Of a DNA stretch of 64,000 nt, positions 4,601 to 63,200 are shown piece by piece (position 1 is the first letter of the stretch; the number at the start of each line of letters is the position of its first letter). Made by a program: the position numbers and the translations under genes. A model generated the notes under the pieces. The model had not been told where the DNA came from. It saw only the letters and a list, made by a program, of their open reading frames with translations, and ran no database searches. Origin of the DNA: Amoebophrya sp. A120 (taxonomy: Eukaryota; Protista; Dinoflagellata). The DNA is taken from positions 1,047,536-1,111,535 of the forward strand of contig CAJINV010000004.1 in NCBI GenBank assembly GCA_905178155.1. Reading direction: 5' to 3'.

Positions 4601-7600
4601 GACTGACTTTATTCTCTGTCATAGAGTGCGACGGAACGAGGAGCTGCAGCTTCTGCTTTTTGTTCCTGGTCTTCATATGGTCGTTATTTGGGTCGTTTGC
4701 GTTATTTCCATTTTGGGTTTGCCTGATGGTAGTACCAGCATTGTTCCTGTTCTTGCTTTTACTCGACGCCGGCCCTTTCTGTTTGTTTCGGGCAACAGGA
4801 CCACGTTCTTGCACGCCGACCATATTTTTCTCCTCCTCTCCCGCCCTCGGTTTGATTTCCTTCATCAAACTAAAAGTATTGTCCCAGGGCGGCCGGTCCG
4901 TGATGCGGTTGGCCGTGATCGCCGAGAAGGCCTTTTTCATCGGCTTTCCTCCGGAAGATGTTGGATCAAAATCATCACCGTGGTCGTGGTCCTCACCAGC
5001 TGCGCTAGAATTATCCGCCTCCAGCCGCCACCTCGCATCAAGCACTGTCCGCTTTTTCTGATTCGCGAGCCGCGTTTCCAAGGGCAGCTTCGAGGGGGAG
5101 TATGAATTGCAAATAAAGTAACGCTGTACTAGTATAAATTGCAATACAAATTGGCTCAGCATTACAAATTGAATTTGTCATGCGGATTTGCCTTAGGAAC
5201 TAGATTTGTCATGCATAAATGCAAAAATTAGTACGAGTACGATACTTTTGCACATGATAGGGAGGACTCCTTGCGGATGTCCGGCGTGTCCAGCGGCGAG
5301 GGCTGAAAGTGGGAAAACAGGTTCTGGAAGTTCCAGTCCGGAGGGCGGGGCGTGGTAGGGGAGATTTCTAATTCTAGGTGTTTAGTGTTTATTTCGTCAT
5401 GCTGTAGCTGGCCCCTCTTGCTTATTCCCGGCGGCGACGGGGGAAGTGAGGGAGACCTGGAAGGTGACCGAGAACGAGACTTCGCCTCCACAAGCGTCGC
5501 GACTCTCAGGAGCTGGTGGTCCCACGTGTTTGGCTGTTAGTGTCATCAGTTTTGGAAATTTCAAGTCTCATCTACGAGATGGTGAACTTCTTCGTCGAAA
5601 CATGATCATCATCACGATCCAAGAATTGTACTTCTGACAGACTCTGCATACATCAACATCCCTTAGAAGATTCCTCTAGACCCTCTTGTTATGTTTAGAT
5701 GTAGAAAGCAGCTGAGTGCTATCCGTTGTACGTACCTCCTCTCCTCCAGCTTCCGCACTTTCCAATTTTCTTGCCGCTAGCGAATCGCGCCGCGCCGGCG
5801 CCTTACTGGATGAAGATGATGAAAAACTCGGCCCGGCTGGAACGGTGCTCGCTGATGTAGTAGGCGGTTTCTGCGTGCTAGCAGTGCTCTGGTGACCACT
5901 TTTCGGTAGTTTCGCCGACTGCGGTCGCGTAGAAGATGTAGTAGCTCCACTACTCTTTGTTCCTCCACCTCCACGCCTTTCAAACACTTCCTGGGACCTG
6001 CGCCGCATCTCCAACAGGCGCTCCTCTTCGCTCTGTTTCCTGGTACTAATCCTGATCGTGGTCGCTTCTTGCTCTGCATCATTTGCACCCTCTTGCTCTT
6101 GTTCCGTATCATCATCAAACACTTTTCGCACGGATTTTCTCCTCTCCTGCACCGTTTCGTGGTGCTGTTCAATATCCTGCGCAAAGGTAAAAGTATCGCA
6201 CCCGTAGAAGTACTTGCAATCGAATCATGCATGACGAGTCTAACTTTGTGCCCGATCTAGCACGACAAATTGCGTTTTTTTGTTCTAGCAACAATTTATG
6301 CTAAATGCAACTCATACTCGTACTAGTACTACCACTAAGTGCGATACTTCTTTTGCAAAAATGCATATTCCATCTGCGCGTAAAGTTTCCGTGCGTTGTC
6401 CAAGACACCTTCCAACTCCTCTCTCGTCTCGTCATCCAGTTCGATCTTCTTCCCAAGCGCCTTGCACCGCTCCAGCAGACTGTGTATCACCGGCGGGTCA
6501 GAGCGTTGCGGCTTAAACTCGGAATCGGACTCCTCGGGTGGGGCGGGTCGTTCTTTTTGTTGATCCCGATCCGTAGGAGGTTCTTGCTGCTCGTGCACCA
6601 CTGGAGCTGCATCAGCAGCAATCTCAACAGCTGGAACGTGCTGGCTCACTTCTTGCGAAACAGGTCCTTGCTCGTCCATGATTTCCATGGCAGCTTCTTC
6701 CTGCGGTCCTACAGCACCAACTTCTACCTCGGAAGCTCCTGCTGCTCCACGCGGCTCCTCCTGGTCTTCTTCCTCCGCAGCTTCGTGATGACCGGCACCG
6801 CCTGCTTCCGGTGTCTGCGGTTCATTTTCATCAAGATTCATCTCGTCCGCCCCCTCAGCAGTTACTGGCACAGGCCGCTCCTCTTCAGGGCTGACGACGT
6901 CTTTTTGCACGTTGTACAAATCTTCTGCGTTTTTGCCACCGCCTTTATTTATTTCCGCAGCCCCATGATCCGTCGGGGAGGCGAAGGGCAGGTCCTTCAG
7001 CGTTTTACTGGCTTGCCCTAGATCATCAACAACTCCGCTGCTGGAGTATGTTTTGTCATCGTTCTTGTCGTTGACATCGTCGCGGCTTTTGCTGTTCATC
7101 TCTACTTCCAAACTAATTTCTCCTCCTTCTCCATCTCCATTTCCTCTACCTCCATCATGTCCTTGCTCCTCCGTCACCACGCTGATCGACTTGGAAGCTG
7201 CAAGCTGATCCTGCTCTGAACCACTGTAGTTTTTGTTCTCTTCCTGTTTGTTGTTCTCGTCCTGATTTATTGTTCTCACCGCCAGCGAAGCCGCCACGTC
7301 ATACAGAATGCCGTTGACGAAAGAGGAGGAGATCGCGTCTTCGGCGTTTATTGGGTTTTGTACTCCTGCATCAAGAGGTCGTTGATCTTTGCTTGCTGTT
7401 TCCACTTTTTGATTTCGATTAGCTTCAGCTTCATGTTCATCACCAGCCGCATCACTTGTTCCGTGAAGATCCATCCCTCCCGCATCGACATCATCTTGAT
7501 CTTCTTGCTTTCGTTCGTCCGCCTCTCCTGCCTGGTAGAAAGTGAACGGATGTGAATGATGTGAATGTTTCAGCGTAGTGCGCACTAATGGATCTTGCGA

Positions 7601-10600
7601 AGGATCTACGACCTCGTCGTCGACCACTTCAGAAGATGTGGGCTGTCGCTGCCCCTGTAAAGATTCTGCACCGACAGGGAGAACCTCGCGCTGCGTAATT
7701 TCCATGTTCATTTCCACTTCCACAACTCCATTGTGCGAACTGGAAGTGCAGCTTTCCTCAAACAATTGCTCCTCCTCCCCCGCAAACCCCTCCTCATGCG
7801 GCGACGCCAAGCGCGTCCCGGCCGACGCAGACGTGAAGTCGTCTTCCGCCGCCGTGTTGTGCACTTCAAGCTCGTTGTTGGTCTCGTTTAACAGATTATT
7901 GTCGTCTAGTTCTTCATCCTCAATTGTTTCTTGACCTGCAACTACCGCAGCAGCGTCCACAAGATTGGAGAGAAGACTACTGCCGCTTGATGTATTGGAA
8001 TTGCCACGCTGTCGGTTGTGCAGATGAGCTTCTTCTTCATCGCATTGTACTAGTGTTCTTGCCCGTGCACCACGACCGTGGCTGTCGTCTAGTCTCTCGT
8101 CTTGATGCGCATTGATACTAGACGCACTTGCCTCCTGCTGTCTCATCAAATTGTAATTCGCGGCGGAGCTGGCTGTGGCACTGCTGCTCTCTTCATCCCC
8201 GAGTACTGCGCCGTTGTCACTACCTGAGTCAGCGGCCTCCACTCCATCTACCTCGTCCTGCGGCAGTGGCGGCGTCCGGGGAGTGGAGAATGTACTGGTA
8301 GCAGGATGAAAACCCTCATATCTGGAGTCCGTGCCGGGAGCAACAATTCCTTCTACTCTAGTAGGATTATTATCATCCGCCGGCGTGCTGGTCTGCGACA
8401 GAACGACTTCTCTGCTGCCATCATGATTCTCGTCCACGACCTCGCAGCTCGACCCGCCCAACAGCGACTCGTTGGCGGTGCCCGAATGGGAGTGCGAATT
8501 ACTGTCCACATTCGCGGAGCCCGTGTGCGAGTGGGTAGCGCCGAGGAGGCGCGCGTTGGAGCTGGAATTGTGTAGCGAAGAATTGTCGGAGGACGCTACC
8601 CGGAAGGAGGAAGAGCTCGAGGAAGAAGAGTTACTGCTCTTCACCCCCTCGCTTTCTCCACTTTTACTCAACTGTTCTTCTTCTACATTATCGCGTCCTC
8701 CTCCAGGCGCGCCTCCATCTGCGCCTGCCTCCGAGAATGAACTTTGACTTTCTTCGCAAGAGGAATTTACCTTCGACATCGACGCTAGAAAATGCTGGCC
8801 TTCCCGACAGTCATTTACCTGGTGGCGGACCATCCAGTCGTATGCAAGAAAAAAACTGTGTAAGTGTAACTCCGTGTTGCAGACGTTGCAATACAGTTAC
8901 ACTTGTCATGCTGGATGTGCATCAGAGCCTATTTTCATGCGTGTTTTCGCGTACCAGCTACGCATGACAGGTTTTCTCTGTCATGCAAAACAAATCTGTG
9001 ATGCTGTTCCTGCAAGAAAGTTACACTTACACACTTTTTTCCTTGGATAAGTCGCGGCTGGGCACTATTACCACCTCGTCGAACCCCTGGGGCGCTCTGT
9101 ACACAACCGTGCAGGTATCAAATGCAAAAATGTCTGGGTCTGGAAGATTCTGAGACTTGTCATGCATGTTTTGCATTGGCCAGCATGTCTGTGATGCATG
9201 CCCTAGCATCACAGATTTTTTGAAGGCTTCGCGATGCCTATTCCGCATGACAAATGGAAATGCCCTCTCCGCGTAGCAAAAATTGCATTCCCTTTGCTGC
9301 TCATGCAATACAGATTTTTTTGGAATCCAAATTCAGCATCACAAGTTGCATTCTTCCAGACCCAGACATTTCTACCTTTGATAGCAGGATTTTTTCAGCA
9401 ACTCTTTCTCGAACCTAGGGATCGGGACCGAGAGTTCGGGCTTGTTTTCTCGATCTTTTGACGTCGCGGATTTATTGTTCCTGCCGCCCTCTTTTGACTT
9501 CTTCTTTGTCACTGCCGAGGTGGTGTTGGCTCTCTGCAACGTCGAGGACCCGCTTCTTTGACGATTTGCAGCTACTACCTCTGCATCGGAGGAGGAAGAG
9601 TTTTTATTTATTCCATCAGTCGCATGGGTTGCAGCTCCAAGGGTTTTCGATCTCCGAACCGGTCTGGAGGTAGATGCTGCTGCATGATCCACGGGATGAA
9701 GTAAATCTTCCGGACAGGAGCCCCCGCCGGCCCCGCTTTGCTCCGCGGAATAAACAAGCTCCTGGCCAGCAGCAGAGTTTTTGCTCTGCTGTGTAGCAGC
9801 TTCTGAAGTAGAGGTTGGCTGAGACGAAGAGGACGAAGATTCCATTTCGGACGAAGACTGGTCTTCGCTTCTCGCGTCTTCACCCCGCCCATCGATTATG
9901 GTATAATGATCTACACCGCCAGCACGACGAGCTGCCGTTCTTGTTCCCCCCTGTTTAGAAGGCAGCTTCACATGACTCAGAAACCGGTCCACTTCGCTCT
10001 CGTCGCGGTAATGCTTCAGCAACCCAAGTTCCAGCCCGCTGGCATACTTCGGGTGCCCGGCGTTCGCGGAGGCGAGAAAGCTGCTGGAGGACGACTTTAT
10101 CACGCCGGGCAAAAGCCGAGTGGATGCGCCGGTTCCTGCGGCAGTTACAGAAGAACTCCCGTTCATCTGCAAGAACGTCGGTCCAGCCGGCTGATATCAA
10201 GTGCAAAAATGTCTGGGTCTGGAAGAATGCATGTTTGTCATGCTCGTCTGGCATGTCTTTAAATCTGTCATGCACGTTACCCAAGAGAGCCATTTTTCTG
10301 TGGTGCAGGAACGCAGTTTGTCATGCAGAATAGACAACACCTAGAAGCTCAGAAACTTGTCATGCTGAGCCAGCAGCATTTGTGGCCTCATCATGAGACG
10401 CCACCCAGCATCACAAGTTTCCAGACCCAGACATTTTTACATTTGATAGCTGATGCTGGTCGACGATAACTTTCTTCCGCAATTCCAGGCTGTTCCCTGC
10501 AGCGAGTATCGATTCGTCGTAGACAATGTGGTCTTTGTCCCCGTCTGGGCTGTTGAGAACCACCTGGATACCCCGCGGAGACATCTCAGAACAGATCGCT

Positions 10601-13600
10601 CCTGGTTGGTTCGAACGAGAACAACCGAGCAAGTTGCTATGATTTAGAGCTTTAACACCCGTTAGCATGAGAAGTGGCGAGTTTGTAGTGAATTTTGCAT
10701 GACAAATAGCAGAGGAGACTGCCGGGACATTGTCCCTTTTGCTCTTCTGGGAAGTGGGTTCTGCACACCGCAGAAGTTGTCCAGGCTTATGCGGCGGGCA
10801 GCTGGACATGGCCTGGGCGTCATTCTTTGGCCATGTCTTTTCGTCTTCCTGTGCTTGCAAAAGAGCAAGCACTGCAGCAGCCGCGGCAAAGACGCCAAAA
10901 ACAAGAGCCGCGAAGCACATAAGTGCAGTTTAGGCAAGATGAGGGCGCGGAAGCAAAGGTGAAAGGACCCGGCCGAGAGCTTTGACGCGTCTATCCGGCA
11001 GGCGCGTGAACTCTCCAGGCCTTATCGGCAGAATATAGAGGCGCTAAGGGCAACAGCGGGCGCCTGTCTTTTCCCCTCGGCCCCACTTCCCAGGGTCTAC
11101 TTGTGCGTTTTTTTGAGCACTTTTCTGCGCTAAACTTTGCTTATCACGGTCGAAAAGTGGCGCTCGGTGAATTTTGGGGTGAATTTTGGAAAGGACGCCG
11201 GTGAATTTTGTCCTCCGGCTCTTGTTCAAAATGCGCTGGCGCATGAGAAACTCCGGGTTTTGGGGCTTCCAGAAAGTGTCGCAAAAACAAAAAGCCTTAA
11301 AATTCACCAAGGGAATTCTTGGCCTGGGGGTCACGTCGAATAAGACTTGCTCCGGAGGCAAAAAACACCTGGGGAGTTGTAAGCCGAGCACAGCAGGCGA
11401 AGCAAACTAGTGCCCGCGGCCGAGTCGTGCCTTCCCTTCCACCCGAGGCTACTCCCAGATATCCAATTCCAAACCACAACTCGCGAGAGCGTGCGCGTTG
11501 TACTCGTGCCCCTGTGTTCAGGCGTCGCCCTCCCTTTCGACCATTTCGGAGAGGAACTTCTGAGGTGAGCGCGCAGATGAACAAGAGCCCCACGATCCAC
11601 CTTCTTTGGTTATGCACTACACGGTCCGGCGGGCCCCGTAAGACCGCTTCTTTCGGTGCTGCAAGTGCCACCTGGCACCGAGCAGCCCTTCACGCTGCGT
11701 GAGCTGCTTGGGATCGTGTCCAGCCCTTTACCACGCAGCGCACTTCTCTTTTGAAGTAAATGCAAGTCATGCAAGACAAATTCACTGCAAATTCACCCCT
11801 CTTATGCTAACGAGCGTCCAAGGCATAAGTTATGATCTTTTCCGTGATGGGTAGAAGTTTTCTTCAATTTTTTCCGGAACTTCCGCTCTTCCTTTTGCTG
11901 CTGGCGGATCTCGCGCGCCGCCTTCCGTCGTTCTTGATTGTAGGCCGAGGAAGACCCGCCGGAATCGTCTTCTAGTGTCGCGCATCAAATGCAAATATGT
12001 CTGGGTCTGGAAGGGTGTAAACTTGTCATGCAGATTTTCATTTTCCATGACCCATGAGGTCAGGAATGCGGAATTTAGCATAACAGACTCTGCGAGGTGG
12101 TCTCTGCCACTGCCATGCCTATCCTGCATGAGAAGCTCCCTCCCAACTTGGTCGAAAGTGGAAAGCTACTTTTGGCACTCATGCAACACAGATTTTTGTA
12201 TGCTTCAGATTTACCATGACAAGTTACCACCTTCCCGACCCAGACATATTTGCAATGCATATCGCGTCGGCAGAAAAGAGGTACTTGAACGAAACCGCGT
12301 ACTCTGTTTTGTTCTCTTCGTTTTCGTTCTCTTCGTTGCTGCTTCCGTGGTAGTTATATGCATTGCAAATATGATGTCTGCATCTGGAACTTGTGATGCA
12401 AGGAAGGGAATAATGAGCACGCTGTAATGCGCTGCCCAGCATGACAAGTTCTTCCGTGGTTCTGGGTTGCGTCATCATCATCATCATCATGTAGTGGACA
12501 CTCGCTCCCAGCGCCACAGGTCAAGGATCCCCTCCCCGGGGGGTGGGCGAGGAAGCACTTTCGGCGACCTCAACATACAAAAGCCGAGCGCTACCACGGC
12601 AAGTCGCCCCAATACAAGTGCCAACCAGTCGGGAGCTACCCACCACACCTGATCAGCACAGCCCGGCCAGCTAGCCGAGCGCGACAGCCCAACATACAGA
12701 ACGATCCAGGACCCGACCCATTTTACGCCATAAGTTTTTGTTCTCACGGAAGAGACGACGTACCCCTTTGGGCTAAGGGGCGAGACTCTCCCTTAAGCCG
12801 CAACCCCACCCGGACAGGGGAGGCTGGACCATTTGTGCCTTACCTGCGGCACGGACGAAAAAGGCAAGTGCCGCGGACCACAGATGTCAAACCATTGGCC
12901 AGTTGTTTGTCACTGCTGACTGGCAACCCACCTGGGGCACAGTGACAACTTAAAGGTTTAGTTTGTGCGTGGCAGTCTTAGTGCAACTACTTGACTTATT
13001 CTGCAACAGAAGCAAAGGGGGAGAGGGGGGGCGGGGGTCTTACGCCAGAGTCGCGACGGGACTTACCTGAACGTAGGGTGCCTGGCAATCCCCTACTAAC
13101 CCCATAACCCTTGCGCGCCCGTAACTTCGTCTTCGTCAGCACCGCGGCCAGGAATTTCGACACACCATTTCCAGCATGGCGGCCGCCGTTTGTACGAAGT
13201 CCCACACGCAACTCCGTGGCCAGAAAGTCCGATACGAATCTTTCACGCCATGTCCATGGCGGCGGTAAGACTGCGCGTCGTGCCTGGTTAGCTCGTGATA
13301 GTCGTGCTGGAGTTGCTCGTGGTAGTCGTGCTGGTGTGCTGCAGTTGCTCGTGGTAGTCGTGCTGGTGTGCTGCAGTTGCTCGTGGTAGTCGTGCTGGTT
13401 AGCGTGACAGCAACTTGAGTGTACTACATAGCGCGGTAGTTCCGAGTCTGGTCGTCGTCGGTGTCCGCACGTTGTTGCCGTTCCTCCGAGTAAAAGCATG
13501 GTCATCTCGATTCGATGGCTGGCACTCCTGATAGTGCTGCTTGACGAGGCCTTGTACAAACGCCGCACCTCCGTGTAGGACACGAGCAGCAACAGAACAT

Positions 13601-16015
13601 ACGGCGCTCCGAATGGACCAACAAGTACTACATTTGACCGAGAAGAAAAAGCGCGTCCGTCGCGTAACTTGAACGGCATTTCCGAGCGGAGAGAACGCGC
13701 TCCGAGAACACACCGAGAGCGACATGCGCATCAACCAGTCTCCCGGTACAGACTGCTTATCGATTATCCGGGTAGAGAACACTCTTCAACAATCCTCGTC
13801 CTGGGTTGGCGCGAGGACGGACAGCACGTGGCGAGAGCCGCGCGCCGCCCTTCCTCCATCTTTATTCCGCTTTTGCATGAGAAACTGCGTTTTTGCATGA
13901 CAGGCAAAAGGGGCCCTTCGCGGCCACGCAATACAGAGTCCAACGTCATACCAGACTAGCATGACAAAATTCGAAATCTTCCTGACCCAGACATATTTGC
14001 AGTTGATAAGTTATCGTGTTGAGGTACTACTACACCAATTTTTCCCCCCGAGGAACTACTGGAGGACTTCGTTCGCTGGTGATTCATCGCTCCTACGGAG
14101 AACGAATCCGGCTCCTGTTCGGCCAAGGCAAATCCACCTGCTAGTGGTGATTTTTGCCCGCTACAACTCTTCGGACTTTGACTGCGTTCCCGGATCTTGT
14201 GGAATTTTTCCGCGGATTTTGACACTGCCATAGCGAGTTTGATTTCCGCCATGATGTCCTTTTCTCGCCCCTCTTTTACCTCTCTCAAAAGCATCTCCGC
14301 CATCTCCGGATCCTCTTCCGTATTGAAATCCGGGTACGCGTGACGCAGCATGCGGAGCGACTCGAGTTCTGCCAGGCGCTCCTTTTTCTTTTGCTCCGCT
14401 TCTTTTCTCCTCTTTTCCTCCTCGAGTTCTCTCACTTTTTCCTCGATCCTTTGCTCCACTTTCACCAACTGCTCTTCCAATAACCGCATCTGCCCTTCCA
14501 AGACTCTCGTCTCTTCCCCCTCTTTCTGCTGCGTATTCGCCTCCAGCAAAATGGCGGCTTTTTCCTTCTCGGAAACCAAAGTGCGCGGATCCTGGGAGTG
14601 CAGCGTGTTGGTCTTCTTGCCCCCTGCTGGTAGATCTTCCTGATCTCCAGAAGATTTGTTCTTATTCCCGTGCTATCAAACGTAAAAATGTCTGGGTCTG
14701 GAAGAATGCATGTTTGTCATGCTTGTCGGGCATGACCATTAAATCTGTCATGCACGTCGCCCAAGAGCCGCATTTTTCTGTCATGCGGAGACGCAATTTG
14801 TCATGCAGAATAGGCAACACCTACAAGCTCAGAAATTTGTCATGCTGAGCCAGCACTTGTAGCCTCCTCATGCTACGCTACTCAGCATCACGAGTTTCCA
14901 GACCCAGACATTTTTACGGTTGATACGTGCCCTTTCTGCGGAGAAAAGTAGAACTCGGAAAGGCGTTTCGCTTCGCGACCGGGGGAAAAAGATTTGAAAA
15001 GCTGCTGGTTTAGCTCGTTGCTCGGATTTTTTGCAGGTTCACTCTTCTTGCTGGACAATAGTTGCGACTGCTGGTGCTGGAGCTGCAACTGCCGCTGCAA
15101 TACGTCGAGTTGTGCTGCTTGCTGCTGCTCTACAACTTCCTTCACTGACACTGTGCTACTTCCCTTACAGCTGTTCGCTCTCGTCCTTCTTGTTACAGGT
15201 GACACGCTAGAGCTCGGCCTCTGCGGAAGTAGAGCATCTACTTCAGCCGGCTCCTTATTCCTCCTACTAAACGGCGACGGCGGATATTGGTCAATGTTGT
15301 CCATTTGCCGCTGAATCTCCTGAATTCGCTGCTGCCGTCTGGAGTCAGTGATATCCACAATTTGCAGCGCTTGGTTCATTATGTTCGTCCCATTGGACGT
15401 GGAGCCGTTGTTTGTGGTTGCAGCGGCCATGTTGCTTCCGTTTGAACCAGCAGCACCCGCCCTCGACTTACTCGCATTTTTCTGCAAAATAGCAGCTCCT
15501 GCAGCGGAGGAACTGCTACCCTTGCTGCCATTTCTGCTCTTAGAGGGAGGGTTCCTCGTCGCGGAGCTTCCTCTTCCGGCTGCTGCACCGGTCGTCGTCG
15601 TTCCGTTGTTCATCTTCGAGCTCGATCTACTCCTTACAACCGCTCCCGCAGACGCCGGGCGCTGCTTCATTTTCGCTCCGGCAAGGAGCGAAGATCCTCG
15701 GTCTTTCGCGCTCTCCTCCCAGGTTCTGGCCAGTTTCTCCGGACTTGGGTTGAACGGCGGGAGTCGGACCTGTTCATTGCCTTGCTGCGCAGGTTGTACG
15801 GCACCCCCCGACGGATCTGCTTTGTTGGCCTTTTTCCCCAAATGGATCTGCCCGCCGGACGAAGTCGGCACCCTCGGCCCGGCGGATCGCGGACGGAACT
15901 TTTTCACATTCTGCTGCAGCACATTCGCCTGCCACTCTGCCTCCGCCTGTCTCTTTTTCCCGGCCAGCCAAATCTCGTGGTCGCACGCCACGTCCCACGC
16001 CGTGCGGGCCGGCAT
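1608..16015 (-). CDS. Spliced gene, ~2902 aa low-complexity/coiled-coil protein of unknown function; 13 introner introns + 1 GT-AG intron
   Basis: ATG 16015 (MPARTAWD). Removing the 14 introns (5699 nt in total) leaves 8709 nt = 2903 codons. Junctions: QKGH|GNKNK, QHDN|YHGSS, SADA|TLEDD, KDHN|LLGCS, DQHQ|PAGPT, KKSC|TVVYR, PSRD|WMVRH, AQME|QHHET, GGEE|PNTWD, KESS|PSKLP, GLDP|DEMIS, VKTG|SNKAK, SDTR|SRKRK, NDDA|DSLQE. Confidence 0.8.
1827..2061. mobile_element. TIR introner, family B
   Basis: TIR tatggcgttctcaa...ttgagaacgccata; TSD gcgtc (1822-1826 / 2062-2066); removing 240 nt keeps the frame. Confidence 0.92.
2407..2638. mobile_element. TIR introner, family B
   Basis: tatggcgttctcaaatgttac...gtaacgtctgagagtcccata; TSD agcgg/atcgg; removing 237 nt keeps the frame. 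Confidence 0.88.
3509..3772. mobile_element. TIR introner, family A
   Basis: tatggattgcaaaagtgtctgggtctggaag...cttccagacccagacctttttgcacttgata; TSD cccag. Confidence 0.92.
3814..4055. mobile_element. TIR introner, family B
   Basis: tatggcgctctcaaacgttacattctcaactgttacatgaattt and its inverted copy; TSD cggat. Confidence 0.92.
5101..5259. mobile_element. TIR introner, family C
   Basis: tatgaattgcaaa...gatacttttgcacatgata; TSD gggag; removing 164 nt joins ORF 5228-5491 to ORF 3846-5162. Confidence 0.88.
5534..5735 (-). other. Canonical GT-AG intron (202 nt)
   Basis: - strand GAG|GTACGT...ACTAACAG|CCA; phase 0; bridges two frames and skips a stop codon. Confidence 0.75.
6173..6367. mobile_element. 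TIR introner, family C, diverged and inverted relative to most C copies
   Basis: tatcctgcgcaaaggtaaaagtatcgca...tgcgatacttcttttgcaaaaatgcata; TSD ttcaa/ttcca; removing 200 nt restores the frame. Confidence 0.82.
8841..9049. mobile_element. TIR introner, family D
   Basis: tatgcaagaaaaaaactgtgtaagtgtaac...gttacacttacacacttttttccttggata; TSD agtcg. Confidence 0.9.
9116..9383. mobile_element. TIR introner, family A
   Basis: tatcaaatgcaaaaatgtctgggtctggaag TIR; TSD gcagg; very similar to 33927-34188. Confidence 0.93.
10195..10448. mobile_element. TIR introner, family A
   Basis: tatcaagtgcaaaaatgtctgggtctggaa TIR; TSD gctga; very similar to 14674-14925 and 32806-33271. Confidence 0.93.
10636..11827. 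mobile_element. Long (~1.2 kb) TIR element acting as an intron, family F
   Basis: Imperfect ~65-bp IR (cgttagcatgagaagtggcgagtttgtagtgaattttgcatgac vs gtcatgcaagacaaattcactgcaaattcacccctcttatgctaacg); direct repeat aagtt at 10631 and 11827; removing 1196 nt gives KDHN|LLGCS in frame. Ends uncertain by 1-2 nt. Confidence 0.72.
11983..12261. mobile_element. TIR introner, family A
   Basis: catcaaatgcaaatatgtctgggtctggaagg...ccttcccgacccagacatatttgcaatgcata; TSD tcgcg. Confidence 0.9.
12471..13870. mobile_element. Nested insertion with a (CAT)6 end; possible non-autonomous retroposon
   Basis: Absent from sister introners; starts with (CAT)6 at 12473-12490; no recognisable RT ORF; boundaries approximate. 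Confidence 0.5.
13298..13398. repeat. ~32-bp tandem repeat (tagtcgtgctggtgtgctgcagttgctcgtgg), about 3 copies
   Basis: Seen directly; the first copy is shorter. Confidence 0.85.
14674..14925. mobile_element. TIR introner, family A
   Basis: tatcaaacgtaaaaatgtctgggtctggaa...ttccagacccagacatttttacggttgata; TSD cgtgc. Confidence 0.93.
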
Positions 16016-16972
16016 AATTTCTACTGATGTGCGCGCTTTATTGTTGCACCTGGTCCAGCGGCAGGAAGTGGAGCGAGTAGTGACAGAAGTTGTCCCAACC
16101 ACGCACGGAAAAGAGCTACGCTCCGAAGCCGAACAACGTGTCATGAACACAAAAAATTTATGCATCTCATAGTTCCAATTTTCAAACCAAGATTGGTATA
16201 AAAGTTCGCTGCCGGGGTGAGATATGATTTCTTTACGCCATGATTCTAGACACATGATACGAAATTTGGTGTAACACGACCTTCCACGAGGGCCGACAAG
16301 AGACGAATGAAACGAAGTTCGCGCACGAGCAATAAAGGAAGACGAAAGGAAAAACAAACGCTCACTCTCTCAAGCAACATTGAAACTGTCTTCTGCCACA
16401 ACCCTCTGTCTCTTCAAGACTTCTGAAATGATGTACGACTCGAATTGCGAGTAGAAATTGCAGCACAAGGTCGAGCTTGTCCTCGTCAGTGCAGAGCAGC
16501 GGAATCGCCAGTAGCCGACCACGATCGAAAATACGACTAGCACCAGGAACGGTCTGAAGCTCCTTACGGATTGAAATACTGTTGCAACACAACATCTGGG
16601 TTCTTTGCGCAACACATGAAATTTTCGTACAACTAGTCGTCGTAGTGTACTCGTAATTCCTTTTCAGATGTAACAAGAAGTAGCAGTACTAGGTATGGAC
16701 CAGGGCTTTCAGAAGTTGCTGCAAGTGAAAGTGTATTCCTATTGGTATTAAGCTGCACATTCATAAGGGAGGTCTAAGCCTCTAACACCTGTACGTCGCT
16801 ATCTGCATGCACGTGCTGGCACTTTTTTCCACGAACGCGAAACAACCTAAACAAAGACGCTCGATCAATGAGCATAGAGTTTAGCTCGTGTTCGTGTTCC
16901 TCTTCCTCTGCGAGAGAAAACAACATGTGTGCTCGCCTCTGGGTGGGCAAGGAGGCGTATGCTAAGATATGT

Positions 16973-31784: not shown

Positions 31785-32407
31785 CTTGGTGATTTCTTTA
31801 CATTCTTCTCCTTGATGGTTGTAGAAAGAGAAACAGTAATTGAGACATTCTACTGAAACCTCTGTGTAGGAACGACATTGTATTTCAAATTTCTCAGCGT
31901 TGAAAGAATCACGTGTCAACGAAAAAGGTCCACTCCAACATTCCCGTACCATGGCACCGAGAATCCCAACGAATAGAAGATACTGGGAGTTGTTGTACTT
32001 ATGTATGATCGGTCTTCCGGACATGAGCGACAGACAAAAACGACGATCGAAAGAACGACTCAAAAATTCTCCCCGGACAAAATGAAAATTCTAAATCTTT
32101 GTCAAGAATGTATGACTTTTCTTCATTTGCGTAGTATCTCTTCTTGTCAACTCGGAGTCCGAAACCCGTCGAAGTCCGAGACAGCAGATGCAAAAGAAAA
32201 GAACGCGTTGCCTAAAATTCAACTGTGAGCAACTAAGGACAAAAACCGACTCAATTGAGCGATTCGTGGGCAACATCGGTTCTATTCTTGGCCACGTCAG
32301 ACAGTGTGCGCTGAAGCTATATTCTCGTTAGAAAAACTGGTCCTGCACTACCAACTTGGCTGTGGAGTGGAAGTGGGTGTCAGAGATTGCATCCATGCAT
32401 GGTCATT

Positions 32408-35400
32408 TCACACAATCCGTGCCGGATCCTTCCGCGGGCTGTGTGTCACAATAAAGTTGCTGTTGATAAACCTCCGCAGCGTTGCATTTTCCTGCCGCAA
32501 TAAATTGACCGCTTTCCGCAACGTCCGTGCCTCCTCCACCGCTTTAGGCGCAACCCACGACATCGGCGGCTCCAGCTGGATATGCATCACAACAGTATCG
32601 CACCTCTAGGTTCAAACTGCAAGAAGACCATCTTTTTTTCAACGAACAAAAATGGTGTTTGTCATGCAGGTATTCAATTTATTTGCCTGACAACTACAAT
32701 TCATACGACTAGTACGTTACTTTTGCAAAGGATACTGGATCGGGGGTCTGGTCGAAGGAGGGGGATTCATCGCGGGGTAGGCCAGTTTCGCGTTGTATCC
32801 CGCCGTATCAAGTGCAAAAATGTCTGGGTCTGGAAGAATGCAAGTTTTTCATGCTTGTCTCAAATGGCTCTTGAATTTGTCATGCACATTACCCAAGGAC
32901 CCCTCTTTTCTGTCATGCAGAAACGCAGTTTGTCATGCAGAATAGGCAACACCTAAAAGCTCAGAAACTTGTCATGCTGAGGCAGCACTTGTGGCCTCCT
33001 CATGATACGCCACCCAGCATCACATCGGAGGTCTAAGGGCAGTCCGTCCCTGTGCCTTTTCTAGGCCTACTAAAACCAATAAATCGCGACTACGTAGTCA
33101 CTACTGAAAAGCTAAATTGGAAAACTTAGTATGGCTACTTATACGTAAGCGCTAGTAAATAGGTATGCGATCAAAAAAGGTTTTGGCATCGCATAATTGT
33201 TGCCACCACAACAAGTGCGAATGACACCCAGCATCACAAGTTTCCGGACCCAGACACTTTTGCATTTGATACGCCGGTCCCGCGCCCGGGGGCGAGCCGC
33301 TGCCCCGCCACTGGTTTTTCTTCGCTGTGTACGAAGCCAAATAGCTGTTTTTCCGCTTTTGGCGCGCAGGACTGCGAGAGCGGCCGTTGTTTGTAGTTCC
33401 ACTGCTCCTTCTTGGGCTGGATTGGGAAAAGCTGGACCGTCGCTGCGGACTTCGGCCAGAGGACCCCCGGCGACCCGCGCCTGGCGAGGACGTGACACTC
33501 CGTCCCGGGCTGGTGATCCTCGATCCAGGTGCCTTGTAGTCGTACTTCGGGATCCCTCTACGCTGGAACGTGGTCTCGCCGGTAAGATGCTTTTTGGGGT
33601 CCACTATCAACTGCAAATATGTCTGAGTCTGCAAGGAAGCGAACTTGTGATGCTGCATTTGGATGTCTAAAAAATTTGTGTTGCATGAGCAGCAAAAGGA
33701 TTCTATTTTTTGCTACGCAGAGACGGTATTTGTCATGCGCAATAGGCATCAAGAAGGCCTCAAAAAACCTGTGATGCTAGGGCATGTATCACAGACATCA
33801 TAGCTCGTGCAAAACGTGCATGACAAGTCTCAGAATCTTCCATACCCAGACATATTTGCATTTGATATCCACGCTTGCGGGCCGGGAGTACGCTTTCGAC
33901 TTCGTGATTTGCTCGGGTTCCGCGGTTATCAAATGTAAAAATGTCTGGGTCTGGAAGATTCTGAGACTTGTCATGCATATTTTCCATGACCCATGATGTC
34001 TGTGATGCATGCCTTAGCATCACAGATTTTTTGAGGGCTTCGCGATGCCTTTTCCGCATGACAAATGCCCTCTCCGCGTAGCAAAAATTGCACCCCCTTT
34101 GCTGCTCATGCAATGCAGATTTTTCTGGAATCCAAATTCAGCATCACAAGTTGCATTCTTCCAGACCCAGACACTTTTACATTTGATAGCGGTCTGCGGA
34201 GAGACGACGCGTTTCAACACGGTCACCGGCGCGGTTTGTCTGCGGAACACGCTGCTCAGGTCCAGCTTCTTGCTGTTACCTGTGCAAAGTGGAATTGATT
34301 ATTTGCATGGTTCGGCGTTGTGGTAGTGTCTACTTTCCTCTCGTGGTGGAAAAGTTCCGTTGCTCTGTGGAGATGGCTTGTTCACTTCGTCACCAATTTG
34401 TCTCTAACACAAATACCATCGAAATAAACACGTTGACAAGGAAGCTCAAGTACCGTACCTGCCTGCGAAACGCTGCTCATTTCCGCAGCAAGGTTGGACC
34501 GCTGTCGAGCCCGCGCTTCGTGCTTCTGTTGCGCTATTCTCACGTTTCGCGCTGCAATGTCGCGGTTTCCTGAAGCAGATATTAGGTTTTTAAAACGTAG
34601 TTTTGCTACACGGGATAAATTTAAATGTCAACACATCAAATGAGAGAAACAGTAAGTAACAACAAATCACATCGCAAGTTCATAAGTACTCTCTTGATCT
34701 TGCTTAGCTTCCAGCCTCCGCTCCGTAAATGTCATCGCCGTCGGCGCTAACCCGTCCGGTGCGTGCTGGAGCCCCTGGATGTTCACGCCCTGCGGCCCCA
34801 CCTCGGGGGCCGCGCTCTGCCGGTGAGAATCGTAGAGCCGCGTGCGCTGCTGCATATGCATTGCAATAGTATCGTATTAGTGTAAACCGCATGACAAATT
34901 TTCCCAGAAAAAAAAAAAAAATTTGTCATGCAGGTTCAGGTAGCAAGGCGGATCTGTCATGCCAGACTGCGACTAGTACGAGTGCGATACTTTTGCACAG
35001 GATACTGCAGCTTTGGAACCAAATTTCTCGCTGTTCTTATGTCCGTGCTCCACATCCGCTGCTCCCGCACGTCCGCCACGGGCGGCCGGTCGTCCTTCTC
35101 TGGCTCATATCAAATGTCAACAATGTCTGGGTCTGGAAACTTGTGATGCTGCGTTGGGAATAGGGAATGCTCTGTAATGCACAGCCAAGCATCAGAAATA
35201 TCTGCGCTTCTTTGTGTTGCGTTTTTCCCATGACAAACTGCGTTTTTGCATGACAGGCAAGGGGGTCTCTTCTTGAACACGCATCACAAACTTTTTGGTC
35301 ATCCCAGACAAGCATGACAAATCTCGCAGTCTTCCAGACCCGGACATTTTTGCACTTGATAGCTCAGGCGGAGGAATGCTGGACCCGAAACCAACTCCGG

Positions 35401-38244
35401 GTGGGGATACTGGCCCTGCTGTCGTTCCAATTGCTCCATTTGCCGTAGTTGTACCAGAGCCCACGAGGGCTGACGACGAGGACAACCCACCAGGCTGTTC
35501 ATCTTGCACCATTCTCGTAGGTCCTGTGGAGGCTGCGGGAGCGGGTGGGGGTACCACAGCAGCAGCAGGTGCTGTAGACCGCGTGTAGTTGCTGTCGGCC
35601 CCCGCACGTGAAGATGATGATCCACCACCCGCTCCGCCTCCGTACGCCGAACGTATCGCCGATGTCGATTTCGCTCGGACCGGTCGGATCCCTCCCCGCA
35701 ATGCCGGCGTACGGTACTTGTTGAAGGCCTGCTTTTGTCGGGACGGCGGCTGGAACGCTCTATTCGGGTTGTTCACCCCTCCTGTATGCATTGCAAAAGT
35801 ATCGTCATAGTATAAATCGCAATACAAATTGCCTCAGCATTAGAAATGGAAAGCTGTTTTACCTTAGGAAGAAGATTTGTCATGCATAGTTGCAATTTAC
35901 TACGAGTACGATACTTTTGCACAGGATATCCTGATGTTCGCGACAATTTCCGGATGTTAAACTGCGCCGCCGAGGAGTACGCCTGCATCTTATCCGGGTC
36001 CCGCCGGTCCCCGCCGCCGGCGTGGTGACGCTCGCCGCCGTGGTGGTGATACGCGTTGAAGTCGTGGTGGCCACTGCCACTGGCCCAGTGTCCCGGCTTC
36101 GAACCGGTGTCGCTCAGAAACCCGACCGGATTCAGCTGCTTGCTGTGGTGCACCGAGTTGCTTGTTCCCACCGCGGGCTCCGGCATGAACAGAAAGGGTG
36201 GGGATTGGGCCGGATGTGTTTTTGACAGTGGTCCGCTGCTCCCTCCACTTCTACTTGATGCGGACGTAACTTTCCTACCAACTGCTGCTGTATTGATGTT
36301 GCCTTCATCTTCTTGCGGCTTCTTGCCGACATAGTCCGTCAGCGGTAGTCGGATCTTCGTGACCTTTGCGGGCCGGGTCGTTGTTGTAGAACTTCTACGT
36401 TCTTGAGACGGATGTTGTAGTTGTCCTGCTCTTGTCCGGAGGTTCATCTGCGTAGAAGCAGAGGGCGCAACGTAGTTGTTGCTGGCTCTAGTACTTCTAC
36501 GTGTCGTGCCGGCTCCTGGTTTGTAATTTCCTCCTCCGGGTCTCGTTGTTGTTCGTGTAGTTCCACCCGGCGCGAAAGACTGCCCCAGTCCCTCGCGCGG
36601 TGCCGGATCTGCCAGCGGGACGAAGCGCGCCTGCGATTGCGATTGGGAATGAAATCTGTCGTCATCATACAATTCGTTGCAGTACACAGGAGCGACGGCT
36701 TCCACTGCAGCTGTTCTACAACTGCTCCTGCTGGTTTTATTGTTTTTCGTTTTCTTCACTTCCTGCTTCAGCAGTCTCCATTCGCGCTCCAGGTGGTCGT
36801 TCGTGCGGATGGGCGACGGCGGAAGGCTGGACACGTACTCCAAATCGCTGTCAATCTGCTGCGACAGCGGTTTTCGGTTGTTCTTTACGTGGTCGACAGA
36901 TTTATTTCGCCCCCGTCGGATCGTCGCCTCGTGCTCGTAAATCTGGAGCGATCGGTTTAGATTGCTGTTGCTGTACTTGTTGTTGTAGCCATCCGGTGGA
37001 AACAAATTATTGCTTTCACGAGGATCTCCATCTGCGTTGGTGTGCATCCTTTCTTCCCGCTGATTATCCTCATCTTTGTTCTCCAGATCCCTAACATACT
37101 CGATCAGCGACCGGGTCCGCTGCGTGCCACAGTCGAGTGCCGGCTTGTGCTTATAATTTCTACTACTTGGTGATGAATTGCTGTTGTTCAGCTTGTTTCT
37201 TTTTCGCCCACTTCTTGTTTCTCTACTCCCAGAGAAAGGATTTTTATCCTGGAACGCAGCCTGATGATCCACTTGCACCACCTTCGGCGTCACCAGCCCC
37301 TCTCCGCCGCCCCCGTGGCCGAAGAGGCTGCGGTCGAGTTGACTCGACGTCGTGTTCACGTCGGCGATTTCGCGCTGCCCCCCGTTTCGCTGGAATAGAG
37401 AACTGCTCCTCGCTCGGCGAGTGCCGGGGTCCAGGGGGGTCTCGTCGTCCTCCAGTGGCTCCTGTCGGCGCCGGTGGAAACGATTTTGACTTTTGTTGTA
37501 GTTCTTCTTGGAAAAACAAGCAGACGGCTTGTAGTTGCTCGTTCTGTGCTGCTGCCCGTTGAACAATGCGGCACTGGCACTGCTAGACGAGGACGCGGAC
37601 GAACTAGAAGTAGCCGATCCTTGCTTCGGTATCTTCCGCAGGTAGGCTGAGTTGAGCGCGGGATCAGGATCCTCTTCGCTGTCCAAATTTGGTTTGTTCC
37701 CTTCGTGTTGGCGGAGCATGACCAATCTCGACGCCGTGTTCCGCCCTGGTGCAGTCCTCGTTTCGAACCGCTTGCCGCTGCGGTTCCTGTTGTAGAGAAA
37801 TGAAAATGATGATAAAGCTTGTCTGAGATGCTTCTTCTTGACAGGGTGTATCTTGTTTGTGTTCGGAACGCGATTTTTGAATGATCTTGAATTAATACCT
37901 GATCATCGTCATCCTATCAATGGAACCTCTACCACCTCTAGCACTAGACTATGAGAAAATAAACAAGACACAAATAAAAAGATAATTCCAATTATTGTAC
38001 CCTCCTAATACCTGAAGACATCGTAGAAGTGCTGACTGCGTAAAAGCTTTTCTTTCACGGAAGCGTCGGTACTGCAATCCGAGTCTCGTTCCGAAGAACT
38101 GTCGAAGTCCGCTCGCTTTCGCGTCGCTTTTATTCCGCCACCCGAAGACGAGCTTCCCGGGGGTTGCGGCCGGCCGTACAAGGCTTTGTCCTTCAATACG
38201 CTCAGCTCCGCCCGGAGGGTCTTTATGTCTTTTTCCAATGACAT
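32408..38244 (-). CDS. Spliced gene, ~1207 aa low-complexity protein with short coiled coils at both ends; 7 introners + 4 GT-AG introns
   Basis: ATG 38244 (MSLEKDIK). Predicted GT-AG introns at 37938-38011, 37787-37898, 34570-34689 and 34280-34458 plus 7 introners leave 3624 nt = 1208 codons, ending ...RQENATLRRFINSNFIVTHSPRKDPARIV. Confidence 0.72.
32581..32734. mobile_element. TIR introner, family C
   Basis: tatgcatcacaacagtatcg...cgttacttttgcaaaggata; TSD ctgga. Confidence 0.85.
32806..33271. mobile_element. Family A introner containing a 200-bp nested insertion
   Basis: Family A TIRs; TSD cgccg; removing 471 nt keeps the frame. Confidence 0.92.
33025..33224. mobile_element. 200-bp insertion flanked by a 14-bp duplication (cacccagcatcaca)
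   Basis: Direct repeat at 33011-33024 and 33225-33238; single copy in sister element 10195-10448. Confidence 0.8.
33605..33867. mobile_element. TIR introner, family A (opposite orientation to 33927)
   Basis: tatcaactgcaaatatgtctgagtctgcaag...catacccagacatatttgcatttgata; TSD tccac. Confidence 0.92.
33927..34188. mobile_element. TIR introner, family A
   Basis: Family A TIRs; TSD gcggt. Confidence 0.93.
34855..35004. mobile_element. TIR introner, family C
   Basis: tatgcattgcaatagtatcg...cgatacttttgcacaggata; TSD ctgca. Confidence 0.9.
35108..35361. mobile_element. TIR introner, family A (opposite orientation to 10195)
   Basis: Family A TIRs; TSD gctca. Confidence 0.93.
35785..35928. mobile_element. 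TIR introner, family C
   Basis: tatgcattgcaaaagtatcgt...acgatacttttgcacaggata; TSD tcctg. Confidence 0.92.
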
Positions 38245-44805: not shown

Positions 44806-47800
44806 TCACGTACTTTTCATTTCAGTTTCGTTTTTTATCAGGCAGTTCTCCAAAACAGCAATGCACACTTGATTCCATTCGGAGATTGCGTCGTCCTGCG
44901 CTTGCTTCCCTCTCGAACTCTGGTCCTTACTGCGGCCGGTTGTTCGGATGCCATTTTGTTGCAAAATTTGTTCTGTCCTTTTGATCATAACCTCGATAAA
45001 ATCCTGCAGTTTCTGTTTGAGCTCGTGTTCTTCTGTATCTTGTTTGAGTTCTTGGTAGTCGCGTTTGTCGTTAGTATCGCCCCAGTGCTGATGTTTATCG
45101 TCAGTAGCAGTCGGCCCACCGGTGGTTTTTGCAACCAGAGCTTCCATTAACTCGACTGGTGGTAGTGCGAGTGCCGTCGGGGAAGTAGTTGTACAACCTT
45201 CCTCCTCGTCTGGTATCGCTATTTGATCAGCGACTTCAGCCACCAGATCCAAAAACCGGGCCGGCGGACAGACCTTTTCATCTTCGGGGGCATGATCCTT
45301 GTTGCTGCTGTCGTGTGCCCCCTTAGTGGTCTCGGTGGTTATTTCTGCGCCCCCATGAAGATCAGAGTTGTTGTAGACCCCCATCATCGTCCACAGCACC
45401 GAGAAGAGCGGCCGCAGTACGTGCACGAACTTTTTCCACTTCGGTTTCTCCGCGAACTTCACGAAGTCCCGGTAATTCTGCTTCCCGTGGTTCCACCACG
45501 CCAGGCACAGTTGGTGTCGATCGAGCTGCTGGCGCGCGAACGGGAGTAAGATGCGCTGAATCGCTTCAGTCGTGCGAAACAGCACCGGAGAAAACAGCAA
45601 ATGCACCATGGACGGGTTCGAGGTAGTCAGCATCTTGCACGAGTGCCGTATGACAGTGCACAACTCCCCCTCCCCCTCATTCGTCATGCAAAATACCCAA
45701 TCCACCCTTTGCCACTTGGCACTGTGTGCATGACAAGTTCTGGTAGTCCAAATAGCACTATACTCTAGTGCAAATCTGTCATGCAAAACCGGCATTGTTG
45801 CTGATGCTTGTATTGCCGTTCATGCTATACAAATGAGGGGGAGGGGGAGTTGTGCACTGTCATATGCCGGATCTCCCAACCAGAAATCTCGATGTCGATG
45901 GCACTGCTACTGGAATTTGTTGTGGTAGACGTCGCTCCTGGTACAACTAGATGATCTGAAATCGTGCTACTAGACTCTTGATGTTCAGGAAAACTACTAC
46001 CAGTAGCTCCAGCGGACGTCGAGGACCACGCGGACCCGCAAGTGAACGATGGAAAGACCTTCCGAAATTTCTGGACCGGCTCCAGAAAGGAGAAATAGGC
46101 CTGGTGACTGTCATGCGCGAAAATTACATGCACGTCGTGGTCACTGGTTTCGGTTGCCGTACCAAGCAGCTGCGAACAGCAGGCGTAGCCCGCGTGGAGA
46201 ATTTTTATCTTCTCCTCTGCTTCGATTTGCGCAAGGATCTGCTGAATTTGCTCGCTTATTTCTTTGCCGGAACTGGATCGGGTGGGGTGCAACAACTGGA
46301 CCATGTTGCAGCTCTGCCTCCCGGACGTCGCATCCACTCCTTCTACAGGGAATGTGGTGGCTGATACTGGCGTCGGAATCACGCCAGGTTCCTGATCCAG
46401 CGACCTCGACGTAGTTCCAACGGTTTGAAGATGATGTTTCCCTTGTTCCGCAGGGGTTAAGTGAAGCGTGCCGCTTTGAAGATGTTCAACACTTTTAATA
46501 CCGCCGCGAACAGGCGGCGTGAAAGTAGTTCCGCTCGTACTAGGCAGAACAGCACCCACTATCATCTTCTCTCCGACCGTGCTCCCAGAAGATAATTCCC
46601 GTATTATAGACCGTGGAGAATCTTCTTCGAAAGAGTTCGCCGTTTCGGCAAACATACCTGTCATCAAATTATCCCGATGCTTGTCCGCCGTTTCCCGCAG
46701 GCGGACGGTGAAAAGCCAATCCGAGAGCTTTTTCACGTCCACTTCCGCGGGTAGGAGCTTTTTCATCTTCGTTACTTCCGCTTTTTCTTTCAATGCTGCG
46801 TACTTCTGCAGCGGCTCCCGCAAAAACCCTTCCGCCTCTTCCCGGCTTCTCGGCAAGCACCCGAGCCGACTCTGCATCACAAATTCGTGTTGTTTCCCCT
46901 CCAATTTCACCAGCGGCTCTTCTAAGTTTAGAATCCGCTGCAACTCAAAAATCTTGTGCCACGCATGGTAGAGAAGCTTGGAGACGCGTTTGGCGGCTTG
47001 CGTCTCTTGCTCGGACAGGTCCAAGGGGGACATAGTCATCTGGTGCGAGGGCGCCGCGGGGAGAACGCTGACGCCCTCTTGTCCACCTCCTGTAGTCTTT
47101 TGCGCCACACCGCCACGCTCTTTATTCCCATTCAGCTCCACAAACTTTCCGTCTTTATCTTCCTCTTCAGCCAGAAGAATTTCCGGCCACTCCGCCACCT
47201 CCTTCTTCGCCCGATACAGTCTTTCCCCAATGAAGCCAAGATACTGCGCCACGCTTCGTAGCGTCAGGAACATCCGCCGCTTTTGCACGAGTTCCACCCA
47301 GACGGAGCTCCCCTCGAAGTGCTTATGCAATGCAAAATTCGAAAAGCATAAGCATCGTACTTCTACTTGTTGTATGAATGATTGCATGGCAAATTTATTT
47401 TTCAAAAACAACAATGCAAAACTTCACTTGTCATGCTAGACCAGGTAGCAAGTTAGATTTCATCACGAGTGCAGTTTTACAGATGCAGATGCTTTGGCGC
47501 AGGATAGCGCTTCCGCGTGAACAACATCTCCAAGTTGCGTGGGTTCCCCTTGCAGAGCTCACACAAAAACGCTCCCAATTCCCGCCCCGTGTACTATGCA
47601 TTGCAAAAGTATCGTACTAGTATGAATTCATTGCAATACAAACTTTCTCAGCACGAGATTAACTTCTTGAGAAAGAAATTTGTAATGCATCAATGCGAGT
47701 ACTACGAGTACGATACTCATGCACAGGATATGTACTCCACCGTGCCGAATTTGTCGCTGGCAAACCCACCGGAGGCAGCCTGGTGGAACTGGAACTGCGT

Positions 47801-62765: not shown

Positions 62766-62919
62766 TATGAATTGCAAAAGTATCGTACTCGTATAAATGC
62801 ATTAGTTACAAATTTCCTCAGCATGAAAAATGAAATTTGTAATGCTGATTTGCCTTAAGAGAGAGATTTGTAAACGCATGACTGCAATTACTACGAGTAC
62901 GATACTTTTGCACTGGATA
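62766..62919. mobile_element. TIR introner, family C; present only in duplicate copy 2
   Basis: tatgaattgcaaaagtatcgtactcgta...tacgagtacgatacttttgcactggata; TSD gacgc. Confidence 0.93.
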
Positions 62920-62925
62920 GACGCG

Positions 62926-63200
62926 TATCAACTGCAAATATCTATCTGGTCCGGCAGTCATGCTTGTCTGACACAGCTCTCAGCTAATGCAGGCGCACGA
63001 AGTAGAGCTCCGCTGACCGGTAAAAATGCACAAACACAACGCCCCATGCAAAATACGCAGCACATAGCAACAGGAAAACTGGTCTTGCTTGGCTGCGCGG
63101 CAAGATTTGCATTCGTGTCGCAGTGCTGCGCCCATCATAATTACATCATTCAGATAATTGCGTCACGACCTAGCAGACCCAGACAGACTTAAATTCGATA
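62926..63200. mobile_element. Old family A-like introner, paralogous to 60459-60787
   Basis: tatcaactgcaaatat...gacccagacagacttaaattcgata; TSD acgcg/atgcg. Confidence 0.75.

Follow-up and report, generated by a model that had tools for sequence, protein, structure and literature searches.

The signals used by the spliceosome (donor, branch point, and acceptor) are strand-specific. The locus described here raises the question of whether inverted-repeat elements that lie within protein-coding genes can nevertheless be removed from RNA in either orientation and, if so, by what signal. A sequence-only reading of the window (the whole 64,000-nt stretch of contig CAJINV010000004.1 of Amoebophrya sp. 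A120) had proposed that removal is independent of orientation and that the signal is symmetric, residing either in the stem formed by the terminal inverted repeats (TIRs) or in a motif present at both ends. The accessible parts of the genome study and of a 2024 review (PMC7789003; PMC11282704) pose as an open question the removal of the signal-less introns of Amoebophrya, which number in the tens of thousands. For the introners of strain A120, the portion of the genome study available describes TAT, seven looser bases, and at least three A residues, a length of ~240 nt, direct repeats of 3–5 nt (5 bp in the legend of Fig. S19), and no end dinucleotide signature (Farhat et al., 2021; PMC7789003). 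In the same portion, gene blocks are co-oriented, a hairpin model is proposed, cut positions are termed variable or unknown, and no family-specific motif was found; the set of spliceosome proteins is nearly full, while U1 and minor-spliceosome snRNAs were undetected. The elements analyzed here share the inverted repeat of TAT, 7 nt, and at least three A residues, the boundary repeats, the division into families, and removal without GT-AG ends.

Anatomy of the Elements

Self-comparison and TIR scans revealed ~28 inverted-repeat elements of the form TAT...ATA within the 64-kb window. They fall into several families, are mostly 140–330 nt long, and are each flanked by two copies of a 5-base word whose sequence varies among insertion sites, i.e., a target-site duplication. 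Relatives were collected with a metagenome scan that yielded 144 loci (559 kb including overlaps), of which the 77 loci listed belong to one assembly and were selected by the family A pattern. De-duplication left 345 elements; a codon model assigned the host strand for 308, and the 37 without a clear strand were dropped. Local and regional calls of this model agreed in 175 of 180 cases. Among the 308 elements, 278 form 14 clusters and 30 further elements were assigned to no family. In this larger sample, 175 elements lie in coding-like sequence, and its orientation counts derive from sequence rather than from removal.

Among 380 TIR pairs from the window and the scanned loci, picked without a duplication criterion, 267 carry an exact 5-nt repeat and 51 a duplication matching at four of five positions, with repeats of other lengths at background (0–35 pairs). 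The TAT is unchanged at 515 of 536 ends in a relaxed search (it had been the seed of the original search), and A occupies positions +11 to +14 in 82–96% of the 308 elements at both ends. Each terminus can thus be written TAT[C/G]-N6-AAAA, with the base frequencies at one end mirroring those at the other. As judged by their sequence, with TIRs, a fixed-length duplication, many copies, and no coding capacity, the elements are to be classed as non-autonomous DNA transposons of the MITE type. No transposase was found in the eight elements longer than 420 nt or by a Pfam scan of the window's open reading frames and 78 of the 94 long open reading frames of the scanned loci.

Several features of the window touch on the history of these insertions. 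The element at 12357–14008 contains an insert at 12470–13870; its six internal open reading frames gave no Pfam match. A 188-nt part of the insert is 96% identical to L021:5372–5559, which also lies inside an element, so elements nest or carry cargo. At 60459–61181 and 62766–63571, within a 2.4-kb tandem duplication, head-to-tail TAT...ATA arrays with similar duplications stand ~6 nt apart, which suggests insertion beside pre-existing elements. Additional TIR-like ends at 47324 and 52972–53162, not paired with a 5-bp duplication by the scans, are likely further, older elements.

Orientation of the Copies

Orientation within the window was scored on elements shortened by 40 nt at either end, which prevents the inverted repeats from aligning with each other. 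The claim that 33605–33867 is the reverse complement of its sisters was borne out: the trimmed element aligns inverted to 33927 (153/183), 9116 (155/188), and 3509 (110/157), while its same-orientation scores of 22 lie within a shuffled null with a maximum of 26. Likewise, 35108 and 12357 proved inverted relative to 10195, 14674, and 32806, the right end of the element being the part aligned for 12357. For 6173, whose trimmed core is too short for scoring, a single alignment places it only as the reverse complement of the other family C copies. A case beyond those first proposed is 3814, which is inverted relative to 1827 and 2407. The statement that all host genes lie on the minus strand is narrowed to the two expressed genes tested, for which it held, and to the 21 window elements scored, for which the codon model predicts it.

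In the larger sample, orientation relative to the host was counted by family for the 308 strand-assigned relatives (metagenome-scan loci plus the window), giving 57:49, 24:20, 12:21, 11:13, 19:4, 7:3, 3:5, 6:2, 5:1, and 3:3. The four largest families are near 50:50. The only departure from even orientation is the 19:4 family (p 0.0026 alone); the pooled p is 0.028 and becomes 0.32 without it. This family, to which 8841–9049 belongs, comprises 23 copies and may be two subfamilies. A branch word as the cause of its skew was considered and dropped after inspection by eye.

Removal From RNA in Both Orientations

The RNA evidence consists of four contig sets from two samples of one study, presumed to be RNA. 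A canonical minus-strand intron at 5534–5735 is absent from the contigs, which are therefore cDNA. In raw RNA runs X9 and X10, 15 and 3 partial reads matched. Between 1500 and 15300, 11 of the 12 catalogued elements have, among the joints listed, a joint that removes the element plus five bases, i.e., the element and one copy of its duplication; such "+5" removal restores the pre-insertion sequence. In all four runs, joints were found for 1827..2061 (family B, plus, duplication GCGTC, joint 1821>2062), 2407..2638 (family B, plus, imperfect duplication, joint 2401>2639 with a slide of 1), 3509..3772 (family A, plus, CCCAG, joint 3503>3773), 3814..4055 (family B, minus, joint 3808>4056), 5101..5259 (family C, plus, joint 5095>5260), and 6173..6367 (family C, minus, imperfect duplication, joint 6167>6368 with a slide of 3). 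Single contigs span all six, covering two families in both orientations each. Removal is thus not confined to one orientation, the element and one duplication copy being absent both ways within single contigs, and the joint falls at the same element+5 position whichever way the copy lies (1827 and 2407 versus 3814; 5101 versus 6173).

The remaining joints of this region were found in fewer runs. Three of four runs removed 9116..9383 (family A, plus, GCAGG, joint 9110>9384) and the inverted family A2 element 12357..14008 (minus, AGTTA, joint 12351>14009). The inversion of the latter had been recognized correctly; its extent had not, as it runs to 14008 with ~1.4 kb inserted, so that removal is precise over 1652 nt. 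Two of four runs removed 14674..14925 (family A2, plus, CGTGC, joint 14668>14926), and one of four each removed 8841..9049 (a copy in the rarer orientation of the 19:4 family, joint 8835>9050) and 11983..12261 (family A-like, plus, joint 11977>12262). The transcript 3' end of 11983 reads ATG instead of ATA; removal is still seen with this last base altered. The twelfth element, 10195..10448 (family A2, plus, GCTGA), has no joint among those listed, and +5 fits its frame.

Over ~1600–16369 on the minus strand, taking out 13 interruptions of the TIR type together with a single GT-AG intron opens one frame of 3022 codons; three of its exons were scanned and gave no Pfam match. A possible exception to the +5 rule occurs at 10638–11827, in a degenerate element (TATG...CATA, 1190 nt) where a joint 10638>11829 (one contig, X7, depth 4) does not fit +5. 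This skip, not pinned exactly, is in frame, and +5 would break the frame. Two further joints with sides of 24–25 nt, 9362>12238 and 10803>10871, were attributed to copies at other loci and disregarded.

A second host transcript, 32293..37296 on the minus strand, is represented by one RNA contig of 2977 nt with at least 953 open codons, its low end being inferred from the contig size. The contig runs directly across 35785..35928 (family C, 144 nt, plus, TCCTG), with 35779 and 35929 contiguous, and elsewhere has a 514-nt gap between the pieces listed. This gap is filled exactly, opening 953 codons, if four elements are taken out with +5 and two canonical GT-AG introns are taken out as well (34280..34458, 179 nt, and 34570..34689, 120 nt, both minus and fitting in sequence and length). 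The four elements are 33605..33867 (family A, 263 nt, minus; duplication TCCAC at 33600–33604 and 33868–33872), 33927..34188 (family A, 262 nt, plus, GCGGT), 34855..35004 (family C, 150 nt, plus, CTGCA), and 35108..35361 (family A2, 254 nt, minus, GCTCA). Their removal is inferred from length in one contig; 33605 and 33927, which lie in opposite orientations, would thereby frame a 54-nt exon. Keeping any one element closes the frame, as found for every element tested in the gene at 33–37 kb. Toward the low end, 32581..32734 (family C, 154 nt, plus, CTGGA) is whole in a DNA contig and its removal is deduced from the frame, and at 32806..33271 (family A2, 466 nt with a 200-nt internal insertion, plus, CGCCG) an RNA piece ends at 33272 and +5 opens the frame. 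The long exon of this gene matched no Pfam family and, in a weak search, no homologue among longer proteins.

With a joint at 45649..45864 (an element of another family, duplication TGCCG, 45643 and 45865 contiguous in an RNA contig), the direct joints total 13, and four more removals fit by exact length. The proposal that all elements restore the frame by the same +5 rule finds its basis in the 5-bp target-site duplication. DNA contigs enter or cross the elements with a depth of 18–31, similar to that of the flanks, and include the left end of 33605. Homology offers another view of the register: in the RPB1 gene of locus L055, +5, and not +2 or +8, gives a gap-free alignment at four elements, with two uninformative. 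This gene (L055:1117–9744), from a locus with the same element families, is interrupted by TIR elements within highly conserved motifs, TAVKTSETGY among them. Its named matches are among apicomplexans and dinoflagellates, and a further match, the best, stands at 86%.

Two other genes of the window may be mentioned. A 3579-codon minus-strand frame at 20389–32090 matches DUF3638, DUF3645, and DUF6606 and has no element inside; one RNA contig set was compared with 30000–31991 and gave no coverage of it. An expressed minus-strand gene at 45825–47423 has a weak match to the RNA repair nucleotidyltransferase RlaP (E 2e-4, under the curated cut-off).

Position of the Cuts

A perfect duplication leaves the joint free to slide, so the imperfect ones are informative. 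At 2407, the RNA holds the transcript-upstream base at position 4 and thus at least four of the five nucleotides of the upstream copy; at 6173, it holds the transcript-upstream base at position 2. The upstream copy of the duplication is kept at both testable sites. For 2407, this places the 5' cut 0–1 nt ahead of TAT and the 3' cut 4–5 nt beyond ATA. Codon fit was uninformative for choosing the exonic copy in 46 cases; the mismatch position was uniform (p 0.47). Among 268 elements, the first T of TAT is altered at one 5' end and at six 3' ends (p ~0.13 by hand), a weak hint of a requirement for a 5' U; overall, changes in TAT are balanced between the ends (10 versus 11).

Conventional Splice Signals

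If each strand carried its own conventional signals, removal in both directions would need no symmetric signal. Such signals were not found. A register giving GT/GC/GA-AG ends is available in 36 of 308 elements, against 37 ± 5 expected by chance with random duplications, and in 1 of 20 window elements. The duplication shows no base preference, all five positions matching the exon background in the 308 elements, and the same holds for every candidate 3' end; a G precedes TAT in 94 of 308, which is the background level. A YTRAY-like branch word occurs in only 4 of 12 and 1 of 21 family C copies in the two orientations, and no branch word is common to the elements, the candidates being inconsistent across families and orientations. 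The features of U2-type introns, a branch word and an AG at the 3' end, are accordingly absent. At 6173, a CAG preceded by a run of pyrimidines lies 4 nt within the transcript 3' end and is passed over, the joint lying beyond the TIR. With registers at chance and the branch word mostly missing, conventional signals on each strand do not account for the removal.

Stem or Motif as Candidates for the Symmetric Signal

Removal in both orientations and mirror-image ends agree with the suggestion of a symmetric signal. Of the two candidates proposed for it, the TIR stem is predicted and a shared motif is present, and neither is singled out. A stem of ~20 of 24 pairs is predicted in both senses: a terminal stem, such as that of 33927, is expected in the transcript sense for 270 of 296 elements and in the antisense for 278. 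Transcript-sense stems show no excess of G-U over A-C (195 versus 210 in 295 elements, p 0.49), and the transcript strand has no folding advantage; thus, there is no sign of selection on RNA pairing, although long stems may mask it. The motif TTGTSATGC or its reverse is found in 306 of 308 elements at 15.5 per kb, compared with 0.57 per kb outside, and in all families it peaks near each end, pointing inward in mirror fashion. Any signal within the TIR is present both ways round, as in the introners of Polarella and Aureococcus; therefore, symmetry alone is no argument against the spliceosome.

Possible Mechanisms

Taken together, we consider it likely that removal occurs at the RNA level and is defined by the element ends, with the cuts set by distance. 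The two cut sites would be brought together by pairing of the ends, or by a factor attached to each of them, and the 3' cut would be set by distance. More speculatively, a cut 1 nt before TAT would let the intron start with N-UAU[G/C], i.e., a spliceosomal donor minus its first base; GUAUG and the U12-type AUAUC are known donors. The same start would be offered at either end of an element, making orientation irrelevant and the insertion exactly reversed. Catalysis by a rewired spliceosome has in our estimate an even chance. The nearly full set of spliceosome proteins published for the matching elements, with U1 undetected, speaks for it; the absent 3' preference, the ignored CAG of 6173, and the lack of a shared branch word all count against it. 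The best overall explanation, namely TIR transposons whose ends define removal from RNA, probably by a rewired spliceosome, is held with no greater assurance.

The total lack of 3' preference also counts in favor of the strongest rival, a non-spliceosomal cut-and-join process that recognizes the base of the stem and releases a circle, as proposed for Euglena; we rate it a serious but less probable alternative. Also in its favor are the lack of an end dinucleotide and of a branch word and the unused internal CAG of 6173. The sources seen in part (PMC12501133; PMC11282704) describe Euglena nonconventional introns that lack GT-AG, have paired ends and short direct repeats, and are suggested to originate from MITEs, as here. 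Also similar are cuts set by spacing, with the longer spacer on the 3' side (Euglena rule N3-CDG...CHG-N5-6), and machinery unidentified in that literature; Euglena introns are further reported to exit as circles. In contrast, the CDG...CHG (CAG/CTG) motif is absent from the elements, which end in TAT...ATA, the purine at the first exon base is not enriched (177 and 155 of 308 against a 58% background), and the stems lack a signal of selection. Euglena is, moreover, an unrelated lineage, for which the parts of these sources available describe no recent families of high copy number with a 5-bp duplication of fixed length.

A protein bound to sequence at both ends, either the TAT[G/C]-N6-AAAA terminus or the inward TTGTSATGC, could replace pairing and be combined with either catalytic route. 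The near-universal motif with its mirrored peaks and the missing G-U excess speak for such a protein. Sub-terminal repeats are, however, equally expected as transposase sites, and the two ends read differently in RNA, so that a single RNA-binding factor would not recognize the two of them; we regard this possibility as rather unlikely.

Precise, stage-specific excision at the DNA level, like that of ciliate internal eliminated sequences, with transcription from cleaned copies, would explain why all signals are strand-symmetric and DNA-like and why removal is the exact reverse of insertion. It is highly improbable: DNA contigs carry the elements at flank depth (rare joined DNA may still occur beyond the 15 of 786 DNA joints listed), the upstream copy is kept in two of two cases, and element ends joined to other flanks occur in RNA contigs, indicating elements in transcripts or contaminating DNA. 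Still less credible is reverse-transcriptase template switching over a hairpin with flanking direct repeats, an orientation-blind artefact documented for exactly such anatomy and pertinent to evidence that is all cDNA, as six elements are missing together from single contigs in four of four runs, a retained element closes the frame everywhere tested (in RPB1 also by homology), the shared sequence needed at the jump shrinks to 1 nt with the upstream copy kept at 2407, and a 1652-nt element with a weak end match is removed as well.

Relation to Known Introners

The elements themselves and the general idea of introners in either orientation are already known. Introners in either orientation are attributed to Huff et al. 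(2016) in the parts consulted of PMC10228655 and bioRxiv 10.1101/2020.10.14.339549, the latter of which describes TIR introners of Polarella glacialis and Aureococcus anophagefferens with target duplications that form introns either way round. The elements described here likewise are DNA-transposon introns formed in both orientations. By that partial account, the Polarella and Aureococcus introners differ in drawing GT/GC/GA and AG from the element or the duplication, in having constrained duplications (GHN6 etc.), and in showing an orientation bias throughout; here, no such ends occur, the duplications are unconstrained, and most families are ~50:50. Non-canonical introns of Fritillaria, as far as the sources were available (PMC11282704; PMC13326754), share an origin from transposons with TIRs and target-site duplications and removal without GT-AG. 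They have dominant end dinucleotides, AG-AC and AG-AT, and their removal is reportedly spliceosomal; the elements here have no dominant dinucleotide.

Two-way removal of Amoebophrya introners seems to be previously undescribed. A literature search returned no statement on the orientation of Amoebophrya elements, which Figures S19–S25 of PMC7789003 or the datasets of PMC12130899 and PMC9860276 may show; the method in the accessible part of PMC9860276 allowed opposite-orientation copies. Relative to the published description of A120, as far as its text was at hand, the present analysis adds removal in both orientations, a constant 5-bp duplication, the kept upstream copy, and the shared TTGTSATGC. 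What is new is two-way removal without splice sites or target constraint, together with an initial placement of the cut register.

Implications

Because removal ignores orientation, the duplications are unconstrained, and the upstream copy is retained, the range of mechanisms narrows to a rule that is symmetric and set by distance. Nature has also supplied experiments for which no genetics is required: sister copies lie in opposite orientations within the same transcript, and the imperfect duplications (51 of 345 elements) allow the cut to be located from RNA reads. A bolder version of the end-defined reading, which we advance only tentatively, is that a machine distinct from ordinary splice-site reading recognizes any paired TAT...ATA ends and that its fixed 5-nt stagger cancels the duplication in any context and either orientation. 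If true, this parasite would possess an "undo" function, acting on RNA, that serves for transposon insertions in general, and transposons with a duplication length equal to the stagger would be harmless in coding DNA and free to spread without limit.
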